From the NCBI GenBank assembly GCA_900758895.1, contig CAAETG010000017.1, positions 1 to 36,056 on the forward strand: DNA of 36,056 bases, read 5' to 3'. This stretch comes from Bacilli bacterium. GTDB lineage: Bacteria; Bacillota_I; Bacilli_A; RF39; UBA660. Of the stretch, positions 19,828 to 22,600 are shown piece by piece (within the stretch, counting starts at the first letter, position 1; each line of letters opens with the position of its first letter). Under the pieces are notes generated by a model, which was given only the letters and a program-made list of their open reading frames with translations, had not been told where the DNA came from and searched no databases. A program made the position numbers and the translations under genes.

Positions 19828-22600
19828 ATGAAAAAGAAAAAATTATTATCAGTATTGTTAATAGCACTTACTTTGTTTGAAGTATTTGCTTTTTCTATAC
19901 CAGCAATAGTAAGTGCAGCGACAAATGAAACATTATCACATCCAAAAGTACCAGATGTATGGTACACAAGACGTGGTGGTGGAAAGCCATATATGTCAGC
20001 ACAATATGAAACTTATACGATGAACGGAAAGGTTGTCTATTGCATAGAGCCGGGAATTGATATTGCTACAACAAGTTATTTAGGCTATGATGGATTACAG
20101 TCATCTCCATATAGTGATGAGATCAATAAAAAAAATAGAACTTATTGGTCACTATGGATATGACTATCCCGGACATCAAACATTAAGATATAGAATGGCT
20201 GCACAAGCCCTTATATGGGAAACAACAGGTGGTCAAATTGTAGAATTTTGGACTCAAGCCTCTGGATATGGGGATTATATCAACATAGACGCAGAGAAAA
20301 ATGAAATAATGAGATTAGTAAATTCTCATTATAATAAACCTAGCTTCAATGGAACAACACAAGAAGCAGTAATAGGTCAAGAATTTAAACTAACTGATAC
20401 AAATGGTGTATTAAGTGAATATGAAGTTTATAGTTCTGATGGACTTTCTGTTAGAATAGATGGAAATGATATATATGTCACACCACTTGAAGTTGGTGAG
20501 CAAACATTAAATGTCGTAAGAAAACATTACGATAATTTTACAACTATTGTGTATTTAGGAAATGGAGTAAATTCTCAAAAAATGGGTTATTTTAGATTTT
20601 CTGATCCAGTAGTTGCTTCTGTTAAAGTCGATACCAAAGGTGGAGATGTAACAGTAGAAAAGAAAGATAATGATACTCAAACAAACGAGCCACAAGGTGT
20701 TGAAGCAACACTAGAGGGAGCAGTTTATGGTATTTATAATCTTAATGATGAATTAGTAGAAAAAGTTACAACAAAAGCAGATGGTACAGTAACAAGTCCA
20801 ATTTTACCAGACATTGGAACATTCTATTTACAAGAAATTAGTCCAAGTACAGGTTATGAATTAGACACAAATAAATACTATTTTGAAATTACTACCGAAG
20901 ATTTACACCCTGCAATTAGTGTGTATGAGCAAATCATTAAAAGAGATGTTGAAATCAATAAGTATTATGCAAGTGCAGAAACAGGAATTTTAAAGCCAGA
21001 AGTCAATATCGAATTTGGTATTTATGATAGTAAGGGAAATCACGTTACAACTGTTAAGACAGATGAACAAGGTTACTCAAAAGTTAATCTCGTTTATGGC
21101 ACTTATACAGTAAAACAACTTAATGCAACAGATGGACACGAAAAAGTAAAAGACTTTAAAATAGTTGTTAATGGAAATTCACCAGAAACAATAAGATATT
21201 CATTATCAAATGCTCCAATTACAGCAAAATTAAAACTTGTAAAGACAGATTCTGAATCTGGAAAAGTTATACCTTATGAAAATGTAACCTTTAAAATTAA
21301 AAATCTTGATACTGGAGAATATGTATGTCAAAAAGTAACTTATCCAGATAAAGAAGAAATCTGTGAGTTTAAAACTGATAAGAACGGTGTATTTATTACT
21401 CCATACCCTTTAACAAGTGCCACTTATCAAATCGAGGAACTAACAAGTCCGTCTGGCTATCTTTTAAATGAAGAAGGTATTGTATTTAGATTAGATGAGA
21501 ATAGTACAATTATCGAAGATGATGATTATGGCAAATATATTGAAGTTGAATTTGCTAATGATAAAATAATGGGCGAAGTTGTAATCGAAAAAACAGGAGA
21601 AGCATTTACTATTGAAGATGGAAAATACTCTTATGAAGAAATCAAATTAAGTGGAGTAGAGTTTTCAATTTATGCAGATGAGGACATTATTACACCAGAT
21701 GGTGTTACTCATTATAAAAAGGGCGAGTTCATAAAATCCATTGAAACAGGATCAGAGGGAACTGCCACATTTACTGACCTTTATTTAGGAAAATATCTAA
21801 TTAAGGAAACCAAGACAGTAGATAATCACGTTATTGATACAACTGAACACAAAATTGAATTAACTGAAATTGATAATAAAACTGCTATTGTATCTGAAAC
21901 ATTAAAATTAAAAAATGAATTGAAAAAGGGAGAACTTGAATTTACAAAAACTGATTTAGTAAATGGAGAGCCTATTCCAAATACAGTTATTGAAATCTAT
22001 GTAGAAGATACAGATGAACTAATTTTCACAGGAGTAACTGATGAGAATGGTCAAATTAAAATTACTGACCTAGTTGCAGGAAAAAAATACTATATTTTAG
22101 AAAAGGAAAGTGCAACTGGCTATGTAATAACAGATGAAAAAGTTACTTTTGAAATCACAGAAGATGGCGAGGTAATTAAAGCAGAAATGAAAAATAAACC
22201 TATTACAGGTACTCTTGAATTTACAAAAGTAGATTTATCAACAGGAACACCATTACCAAATACACTAATAGAAATTTATAATGACAAAGATGAATTAGTA
22301 TTTAGTGGTAGAACTGATGAAAATGGAAAAATTGTTATTGAAGAAATGAGATATGGTCGCTATTATATTTTAGAAAAAGAGGCACCAGAGGGCTATATCC
22401 TTAATGAAGAAAGAATGTATTTTGAAATTCTTGAGGATGGAGAAATTGTAAAAGCCACAATGGAAAATGAAAAAGTTGTTGTTGAAGTTCCAAATACAGG
22501 AATTAACGATTATCATATTCTTGAAATTGTTGGTGGATTACTAATTATAAGTGGAATAGGAGTTGTTGTTTATGTTAAAAAAAGAAAAAAACAACAATAA
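19828..22600 (+). pseudogene. Thioester-domain-like / CnaB(SpaA)-repeat cell-wall-anchored adhesin, interrupted by a +1 frameshift in an A8 tract
   Basis: ORF 19828..20163 carries the signal peptide and VVYCIEPG. ORF 20087..22600 continues the same protein in the +1 frame (..KKIELIGHYGYDYPG..AAQALIWE.., several prealbumin-like repeats, two near-identical LEFTK.DL..G.P.PNT.IEIY repeats). The C-terminus has VPNTG, a hydrophobic stretch and a KKRKK sorting signal. Removing one A from 20128-20135 gives one 923-aa ORF. Confidence 0.8.

Follow-up and report, generated by a model that had tools for sequence, protein, structure and literature searches.

A one-base homopolymer frameshift splits the gene of a class II thioester-domain adhesin in an integrated conjugative element of a Bacilli bacterium

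The window, by which we mean the whole 36,056-nucleotide stretch of DNA, from an uncultured gut Bacilli bacterium, that was analysed (contig CAAETG010000017.1 of assembly GCA_900758895.1), carries chromosomal housekeeping sequence to the left of position 16827, followed by the left part of an integrated conjugative element. The genes of the element are arranged in the order ParA, ParB, a 204-aa secreted protein, a surface adhesin, a sortase, a 2457-aa methylase/SNF2 helicase, a DUF3991-Toprim protein and NikA/MobC. The adhesin gene is divided between two listed open reading frames, and the features at and around it are the following:

16827..36056, + strand: left part of the integrated conjugative element, delimited by gene content and by near-identical relatives that align from 16827 onward
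19828..20163, + strand: fragment 1 of the adhesin gene, 111 aa, frame 1, with the signal peptide (residues 1-30, ending ...IVSA before AT), the N-terminal strands of the thioester domain and Cys72
19918..20638, + strand: class II thioester domain, about residues 31-270, from the AlphaFold2 model and Foldseek
20041..20043, + strand: Cys72 codon (TGC) in YCIE, the [YFL]CΦζ thioester Cys motif, from alignment
20128..20135, + strand: A8 homopolymer and frameshift site, AAT-AAA-AAA-ATA (Asn-Lys-Lys-Ile, residues 100-103) plus one extra A
20136..22600, + strand: continuation of the gene of fragment 1 in the +1 frame, residues 103-923
20204..20206, + strand: Gln126 codon (CAA) in AAQALIW(E), the TQXXΦW motif on helix α2, not bond-forming, from alignment
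20576..20578, + strand: Gln250 codon (CAA) in VNSQKMGYF, the predicted bond-forming Gln, aligned with Gln467 of SaTIE
20639..22486, + strand: stalk of SpaA/CnaB-type β-sandwich domains (six stretches matched by Pfam PF17802; model and Foldseek)
22487..22600, + strand: sorting signal, with VPNTG (22487-22501), a hydrophobic helix and a KKRKKQQ tail (TIGR01167)
22563..23222, + strand: dedicated sortase gene, which overlaps the 3' end of the adhesin gene (PF04203 Sortase, E = 2.4e-18)

Inspection of the sequence places the run of eight A residues exactly at 20128-20135, within 20120-20139, which reads AGATCAAT-AAAAAAAA-TAGA. Fragment 1 comprises 102 native residues, which are 100% identical to residues 1-102 of intact relatives, and a nine-residue out-of-frame tail (NRTYWSLWI) that ends at a stop. 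The downstream reading frame is listed as 20087..22600 (837 aa, +1 frame, start ATG 20087), and no obvious Shine-Dalgarno site was found for this ATG, whose leader is out-of-frame sequence. When one A is deleted in silico from the run, an open frame of 923 codons without any further stop is obtained, and the sequence on either side of the junction is 100% identical to intact 923-aa proteins of other assemblies. The run is also the sole indel relative to the 99.4%-identical relative L003, over 8.77 kb aligned. Finally, the Pfam TED profile (PF08341, gathering cut-off 22 bits) matches residues 69-142 of the in silico read-through protein, across the junction, with 27.1 bits, and matches neither fragment on its own. 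The identity of the flanks, the single indel in the run and a domain that spans the junction indicate that the junction of the two reading frames is not due to chance, as had been proposed in the preliminary description, which treated them as one gene split within the A8 run. For annotation, the two reading frames are best handled as a single frameshifted gene. The window has a G+C content of 30.6% and contains seven runs of A or T of at least 8 nt, and the A8 run is in itself unremarkable for it; further A8 runs lie at 19074-19081 (intergenic) and 23342-23349 (coding).

The N-terminal domain of the read-through protein is a class II thioester domain (TED), although the thioester bond itself is predicted. 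The AlphaFold2 model, which is that of a 99.7%-identical intact relative (mean pLDDT 85.8), has a β-barrel, three helices (residues 97-108, 119-134 and 154-165) and an inserted β-sandwich at about residues 176-254, which corresponds to the class II topology; the frameshift falls in the first of these helices. In Foldseek the top whole-chain match is BaTIE (6fwv, E = 2e-29), and SaTIE-TED (6fx6) superposes with a TM score of 0.77 and an rmsd of 3.6 Å. SaTIE-TED is also matched by sequence, with E = 1.2e-14 and with the Cys and Gln aligned, while the NCBIfam profiles gave no thioester-domain match in the read-through N-terminus. The resemblance to TED Cys and Gln motifs that had been noticed from the letters is thus borne out by profile, sequence and fold.

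The Cys codon had been correctly located at 20041-20043: Cys72 is invariant (52/52 homologues) and aligns with Cys296 of SaTIE. The codon at 20204-20206 does encode a conserved Gln, but not, as had been assumed, the thioester partner. Gln126 and Trp130, both invariant among the 52 homologues, belong to the TQXXΦW motif, whose first residue is Thr in 32 of the 52 homologues and Ala here, and which lies within the predicted helix 119-134 of the model. The Gln of this motif is not essential to thioester bond formation (Miller et al. 2018, PMC6194298). From the alignment, the partner of Cys72 is predicted to be Gln250, located on the strand after the class II β-sandwich insert. This column holds Gln in 46/52 homologues, and the remaining six have a Gln two to three columns away; the Cys-Gln spacing is 178 residues here, compared with 171 in SaTIE and 188 in TIEpLS20. 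Since the frameshift still lies between Cys72 and Gln250, the earlier statement that it separates the thioester Cys from its Gln was right, but for the wrong residue. The A8 run separates Cys72 and Gln250 into different frames, and the copy in the window is a broken member of the class II TED family.

At the C-terminal end, the sorting signal is recognised by TIGR01167 with 17.4 bits (cut-off 15.9), while Pfam Gram_pos_anchor reaches 19.2 bits, slightly below its cut-off of 20; Pro888 and Thr890 of the signal are invariant. The signal peptide (read directly from the sequence), the sorting motif, the hydrophobic segment, the basic tail and the adjoining sortase gene together identify the read-through protein, as judged from its sequence, as a sortase-anchored surface protein. 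Sortase anchoring therefore stands as first described, although the motif is VPNTG and not the canonical LPXTG.

The conjugative setting, which had also been proposed, is supported by the ParA, ParB, DUF3991-Toprim and NikA/MobC genes in the window, and by the remainder of the element on contig C130 of the same MAG, where genes for a coupling protein (601 aa) and a VirB4-like ATPase (777 aa) are syntenic with those of relatives. A megablast of 19700-22700 against the PLSDB plasmids gave no match, which indicates that the element is chromosomal or ICE-borne. We considered whether the element is decaying and rejected this, since every element reading frame that was compared with a relative is full length. 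By analogy with TIEpLS20, the adhesin most likely helps donor cells to hold recipients during mating.

The length of the tract in homologous elements, which had been suggested as a check, was compared at several levels of relatedness. In 16 close relatives the tract is always in frame, as A7 in 10/16 and as the interrupted AAT-AAG-AAA in the other 6/16, and at all 38 related loci (38/38) the N-terminal domain is in a single frame. A copy of 88% identity in Anaerofustis butyriciformans HA2171, a cultured carrier, has A7 (L009). The protein cluster to which the adhesin belongs has 306 members. The exact read-through protein of the window haplotype was found on 100 contigs (NCBI, ENA and Logan) and the broken product on about 5-6, so that about 95% or more of the observed copies are in frame. 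Relative to three near-identical elements, over 6.5 kb, the private differences of the window are the extra A and one substitution only. Among the copies observed, out-of-frame alleles are rare.

The A8 allele is present in the window and in two further loci (L047 and L048), A6 in one (L049), and A7 in most copies. A8 recurs in a Logan contig of run ERR688623, which is 100% identical over 1596 bp, and A8 together with the 111-aa product is found in an ENA MEGAHIT contig and on a 37,773-bp contig distinct from that of the window. A single sample may lie behind all of the A8 assemblies. L048 was considered as an independent origin of A8 and rejected, as it matches the window exactly as far as 20229 and is chimeric thereafter. 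The A6 allele comes from a Logan contig of ERR4832177 that matches L004 without a single mismatch over 1422 bp, the tract being the only difference; as an independent allele on another haplotype, it indicates that the run slips repeatedly.

The reading that we favour, with a confidence somewhat above even, is that the window carries a recent, non-programmed null allele of a TIE-type mating adhesin, which arose by slippage from A7 to A8 in an element that is otherwise intact. An A7 run formed by ordinary Lys-Lys codons (AAT-AAA-AAA-ATA) would have gained one A by replication slippage, and translation would then end after the 102 native residues. The secreted stub would retain Cys72, but would lack the helices, Gln250, the stalk and the anchor, and the 821 codons downstream would be left with neither a signal peptide nor an evident ribosome-binding site. 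The tract would in this case be a mild mutational hot spot rather than a selected switch. The A8 is probably real, and we infer that the cells do carry the extra A and that the adhesin function would be lost in this copy. The presence of the intact read-through protein on about 100 other public contigs argues for an ordinary recent knock-out and not for a built-in switch. Of the three options initially left open, a recent null allele therefore fits best, whereas an assembly error is disfavoured, and selected ON/OFF switching is not supported by the conservation of the tract or by the allele frequencies.

Slipped-strand ON/OFF phase variation, in which the A-run would be a contingency tract through which the element or its host switches the mating adhesin, for example to avoid its cost or exposure, is in our judgement unlikely. 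Three tract lengths (A6, A7 and A8) occur in public data, with two frameshifted alleles on two haplotypes, in each of which the tract is the sole indel, and such repeated change of length at one site would also be expected of a phase-variable tract. The position, early in a surface-adhesin gene, is typical of contingency tracts, and there is a precedent in the intragenic G-tracts that switch sortase-dependent pilus clusters in Bifidobacterium breve (PMC9187656). Nevertheless, the ON tract is only 7 nt long and is interrupted by AAG in the six close relatives mentioned above. Its frequency agrees with codon usage: AAA accounts for 79% of the Lys codons in the window, which gives an expectation of about 62% for AAA-AAA by chance, and with A7 in 10/16 relatives against this value of about 0.62 the tract does not appear, from these sequences, to be kept among homologues beyond what codon usage predicts. 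Equally long runs also exist elsewhere in the gene, which has three further A7 runs, among them one at codon 751. The mismatch repair genes are intact, and homopolymer frameshifts of a similar kind are found in unrelated genes of the MAG. Most copies are ON, in the proportion given above, in contrast to the broad length distributions and large OFF fractions of characterised contingency loci (30-60% OFF in B. breve). The more restricted proposal that the run at codons 101-102 is a low-frequency reversible switch, with A6 and A8 as OFF states that recur across haplotypes of a widespread gut element, seems to us unlikely as well. If it were true, the switch would allow the element or its host to balance transfer ability against what a covalent surface adhesin entails in cost or exposure, and a conjugation function of Gram-positive gut commensals would be phase-variable.

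A sequencing or assembly artefact, in which a homopolymer miscall would have added the A to a gene that is intact, with A7, in the cells, is likewise improbable. The MAG is fragmented (222 contigs, 87% complete), the gene is unbroken on 100 contigs of the identical haplotype, and a single substitution is the only private difference besides the extra A. In addition, a genome-wide screen of the MAG for homopolymer frameshifts, in which confirmation was taken from a Pfam domain spanning the junction, revealed others in genes unrelated to the adhesin. Most of the candidates were ordinary gene junctions (rnr-smpB, lipoprotein starts, stops straddling the run), but three were confirmed, on contigs C200, C216 and C219, the domains found across the junctions being ABC_tran, DUF1016_N and PDDEXK_2; C67 (HTH) is a likely frameshift and C100 and C136 are candidates. 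Expressed per coding run, about 3 frameshifts were found in about 1,760 A6/T6 runs, about 0 in about 600 A7/T7 runs and up to about 4 in about 118 A8/T8 runs, the last figure being composed of the adhesin, the probable case on C67 and the unconfirmed ones on C100 and C136. These counts lack the steep rise with run length that a homopolymer-error-prone platform would give, and the affected genes are all accessory, which suggests that selection has filtered real mutations. Moreover, the A8 run and the 111-aa product recur in the Logan, ENA MEGAHIT and 37,773-bp contigs, and their presence in assemblies from other pipelines makes an assembler artefact unlikely. A mutator background was considered separately and rejected, with MutS (857-aa open frame) and MutL (592 aa) both present and intact.

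In bacteria, A or T runs of at least about 8-9 permit some transcriptional slippage, and ribosomes are able to slide on poly-A Lys codons. Programmed recoding, by which the A8 allele would still give full-length adhesin through transcriptional slippage or +1 ribosomal slippage on tRNA-Lys, is highly improbable: a small leak of full-length product is physically plausible, but none of the 38 related loci keeps the out-of-frame arrangement, so that recoding is not a conserved feature. Ribosomal frameshifting by -1 was rejected by frame arithmetic, since the downstream frame requires a shift of +1 and the classic -1 slippery reading of A_AAA_AAA gives the wrong frame.

Read as a recent null allele, the lesion is a single-base homopolymer frameshift of the sort found in any AT-rich genome, in a gene class that has already been described, the class II thioester-domain conjugation adhesins, and as it stands it matters little. 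A modest lead is provided by A6 and A8, two independent frameshift alleles at one run of a very widespread element.

Three known systems can be compared with this locus. The class II TEDs SaTIE, BaTIE and EfmTIE86 (Miller et al. 2018, PMC6194298; 6fx6, 6fwv) include SaTIE, which matches by both sequence and fold, and the Cys motif, the TQXXΦW motif and the Gln that follows the β-sandwich insert all align with the SaTIE/BaTIE class. The identity to this class is however just 17-22%, the adhesin has AQALIW with Ala in place of Thr, and its thioester bond is predicted. The pilus-cluster G-tract of B. breve UCC2003 (Penno et al. 2022, PMC9187656) resembles the A-run in being a homopolymer in the first gene of an adhesin-sortase cluster of a gut commensal, and in splitting it into 'a' and 'b' reading frames that one base more or fewer would fuse. 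The B. breve tracts are G9-G12, conserved across species and heterogeneous in 30-60% of cells (PMC9187656), whereas the A-run is normally A7, shows no such conservation, and reads in frame in about 95% of the copies sampled across assemblies.

The closest characterised relative is TIEpLS20 (p34), the class II TED adhesin of the Bacillus subtilis conjugative plasmid pLS20 (Gago-Cordoba et al. 2021, PMC8092201). TIEpLS20 is plasmid-borne, has 778 aa and reportedly lacks sortase-mediated coupling to the wall (PMC8092201), whereas the adhesin described here, frameshifted in this assembly, belongs to an integrated element and combines VPNTG and a sortase of its own with a longer stalk. A requirement in the donor for efficient transfer was shown for TIEpLS20 (PMC8092201), and for the present adhesin we infer only a corresponding role in mating. 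The two proteins share a signal peptide, an N-terminal class II thioester domain, a Cna-type stalk and a setting among conjugation genes, as well as the YC[I][D/E] Cys motif (Cys68 in TIEpLS20, Cys72 here) and a predicted partner Gln some 180-190 residues after the Cys (Gln256 in TIEpLS20, Gln250 here).

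The window carries a run of eight As at 20128-20135 (...GAG ATC AAT AAA AAA AAT AGA...), which divides an adhesin gene into two reading frames:

19828..20163: fragment 1 ORF, 111 aa
20087..22600: fragment 2 ORF, 837 aa, +1 relative to fragment 1

Removal of one A in silico gives an open frame of 923 aa with zero further stops. In tblastn searches, the N-terminus of this read-through protein needs two frames to match the window, one ending where the other begins at the A8 run (residues 102/103), and a single frame at all other loci. The abutting frames and the repaired frame bear out the proposal, made in the preliminary description, that one gene is split here, and its positions for the Cys codon (20041-20043) and the AAQALIWE Gln codon (20204-20206) are also correct. 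The frameshift observation is confirmed as real.

Pfam matches PF17802 (SpaA/prealbumin fold, E = 1e-78) in six stretches of fragment 2, which also has a weak match to a Gram-positive anchor; fragment 1 matches no family. The thioester domain PF08341 is found in the read-through protein only, at residues 69-142 spanning the junction (27.1 bits, cut-off 22 bits). TIGR01167 (LPXTG anchor) also scores above its cut-off, with a sorting motif that reads VPNTG. Among solved structures, the one good sequence match of the N-terminal domain is SaTIE-TED (6fx6, E = 1.2e-14). An intact relative, P0003, which differs at 3 amino acids, was modelled with AlphaFold2 from an alignment of 52 homologues (mean pLDDT 85.8). 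In Foldseek the model is closest to the full-length TIE protein of Bacillus anthracis (6fwv, E = 2e-29) and to SaTIE-TED (TM 0.77, rmsd 3.6 Å), with Gram-positive pilins among the lower-ranked matches for the stalk. The domains of 6fx6 and 6fwv are class II thioester domains (Miller et al. 2018, PMC6194298). The suspected TED-type N-terminal domain is thus supported by profile, sequence and fold; the protein belongs to an already known kind, of which this copy is a new member. Across the family the sorting motif (22487-22501 in the window) is mostly VPNTG, with variants VPSTG and VPNTE, and is always accompanied by a small overlapping sortase gene, a pairing which suggests that adhesin and sortase are a dedicated substrate pair of non-LPXTG specificity.

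In such domains two motifs supply the residues of the thioester bond (Cys296-Gln467 in SaTIE): [YFL]CΦζ and the weak ΦQζΦΦ. A separate motif, TQXXΦW, has a Gln and a Trp that are dispensable for the bond (PMC6194298). HMMER aligns Cys72 (YCIE) to SaTIE Cys296, AAQALIW to the TQXXΦW motif, and the Gln of VNSQKMGYF (Gln250, codon 20576-20578) to SaTIE Gln467. Cys72, Gln126 and Trp130 are invariant across 52 homologues; position 250 is Gln in 46 of these, and the remainder have a Gln 2-3 columns off. The Cys-Gln spacing is 178 residues, vs 171 in SaTIE and 188 in TIEpLS20. The frameshift falls in the domain's first helix (97-108 in the AlphaFold2 model) and, as first described, comes between the thioester Cys and Gln; the predicted Gln from the SaTIE alignment, however, is Gln250 rather than that of AAQALIWE.

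The adhesin gene lies in a conjugative element that follows chromosomal sequence:

1 to about 16.8 kb: chromosomal housekeeping genes (FtsW-like, acetate kinase, PPDK, GreA, L19, signal peptidase)

The alignment of near-identical mobile-element relatives begins at about 16.83 kb, and the gene order is ParA, ParB, a 204-aa secreted protein, adhesin, sortase (PF04203), a 2457-aa methyltransferase/SNF2 helicase, DUF3991-Toprim and NikA/MobC. The window is the entire contig C17 of a 1.40 Mb MAG (222 contigs, 87% complete), and the remainder of the element, including a 601-aa coupling protein and a 777-aa VirB4-like ATPase, is on contig C130. All element ORFs checked against a relative have their full length (85-100% identity), and in the relative L007 the element lies in a closed HiFi chromosome. 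The boundary lies a short way past a RhuM-family gene (15695-16729), at 16827-17169: alignments to the closest relatives start at 16827, those to more distant ones not before 17169. The gene immediately upstream of the adhesin's (19139-19753) encodes the 204-aa secreted or membrane protein, whose middle part is acidic and rich in Glu, Gln and Thr and whose C-terminal module contains Cys; the protein matches no Pfam family and is kept in relatives (201 aa in L001). Between parB and this gene lies an intergenic A8 run (19074-19081) that has one A fewer (A7) in element L001 (97.7% identical), which makes it a second A-run in the element with a length polymorphism.

Sequence comparison indirectly favours the extra A as a real variant, because A8 recurs in other contigs. 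Both the A8 and its product are present in one contig that Logan assembled from ERR688623 (1,596 bp at 100% identity), in the ENA MEGAHIT contig L048 (identical for 470 bp, then chimeric) and in a 37,773-bp contig distinct from that of the window. These contigs came from different assemblers, and may have a single sample of origin. L048 (ERZ27433045 k87_272336) equals the window, A8 included, up to window 20229; its positions 470-558 first show SNPs of the 89%-identical haplotype and then an unrelated GC-rich end, and this chimerism suggests that the sample holds a mixture of element variants. Homopolymer frameshifts also occur in accessory genes of the MAG unrelated to the adhesin, and were counted as confirmed where one Pfam domain extends across the split:

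C200, run 1879-1884 of the reverse complement, minus strand: ABC_tran (ABC transporter), A6, one A extra, Pfam domain across the junction
C216, 3865-3881, minus strand: DUF1016_N (DUF1016 nuclease), A6, one too few, Pfam domain across the junction
C219, 4357-4362, plus strand: PDDEXK_2 protein, A6, one extra, Pfam domain across the junction
C67, 10237-10244, plus strand: XRE HTH gene, A8, one extra, probable split

Two more A8 candidates, on C100 (PIN-like?) and C136 (ISL3 transposase), are ambiguous. The MAG frameshifts show no steep increase with run length and spare housekeeping genes, which is more like true mutations that selection has filtered than like platform error. The mismatch-repair proteins MutS and MutL are both intact.

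Comparing tract length across homologous elements, a check named in the preliminary description, showed the gene to be in frame at the tract in each of 16 close relatives, which come from GTDB genomes and metagenomes and have 76-99% nucleotide identity: ten carry A7 (AAT/AGT-AAA-AAA-AT(A/T)) and six an AAG interruption (AAT-AAG-AAA-ATA). The N-terminal domain is in a single frame at 38/38 loci having it. The A8 run is the only gap against L003 (99.4% over 8,770 bp); when four sequences are aligned over 6.5 kb, just two changes are private to the window, the additional A and a substitution at 20917. The exact read-through protein of the window haplotype occurs in 100 public contigs (NCBI, ENA, Logan; longest 410 kb), and the exact 111-aa frameshift product in about 5-6. 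A6 occurs in a Logan contig of ERR4832177 (L049, 330-340), with TAG after residue 102 and 0 mismatches over 1,422 bp to the L004 haplotype, which is the 'Candidatus Onthocola stercorigallinarum' MAG copy. In a 36,591-bp Clostridia MAG contig, the gene calls break a homologous adhesin (P0124/P0137; NCBI MEI3402433.1/MEI3402431.1) into several short pieces that contain insertions, e.g. ...IELIGNYYGYDY..., which suggests an indel-rich assembly, not biology.

These alleles bear on whether the A-run is an ON/OFF phase-variation (contingency) tract. Since the ERR4832177 contig carries A6 on the L004 haplotype, both +1 (A8) and -1 (A6) alleles exist, on two haplotypes and each as the allele's sole indel; this recurrence of tract-length change is a modest lead. 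However, the ON-state tract has seven bases only, and three further A7 runs lie in the same gene. With AAA as 79% of the window's Lys codons, about 62% of Lys-Lys pairs should read AAA-AAA, and the observed share agrees. Whereas the pilus-gene G-tracts of Bifidobacterium breve are conserved, G9-G12 and 30-60% heterogeneous (PMC9187656), the adhesin's A7 is interrupted in 6/16 relatives and OFF copies amount to about 5% or less among those sampled. We read the A-run as probably an incidental slippage hot spot rather than a selected contingency tract. Among the three origins first considered (error, pseudogene, phase variation), the switch is disfavoured by a short tract, uninterrupted only in 10/16, and by the rarity of OFF copies, and a real allele is favoured; the lesion is best explained as a frameshift allele of the ordinary kind.

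This allele would yield, from fragment 1, an exported stub of approximately 81 residues that keeps Cys72 and lacks the helices, Gln250, stalk and anchor. A signal peptide is missing from fragment 2, and the window sequence has no obvious Shine-Dalgarno site ahead of its ATG at 20087 or 20117. Expression of the overlapping sortase may be reduced by polarity, by analogy with the reasoning in PMC9187656, with about 2.4 kb of message untranslated. Slippage in transcription, or by +1 in translation, could physically leak a small amount of full-length product; this would not be programmed, because the out-of-frame arrangement is not conserved. The closest characterised system to the window's adhesin is TIEpLS20, a class II TED adhesin which the donor needs for efficient conjugation of the Bacillus subtilis plasmid pLS20 in liquid, and in which Cys68 is essential (PMC8092201).
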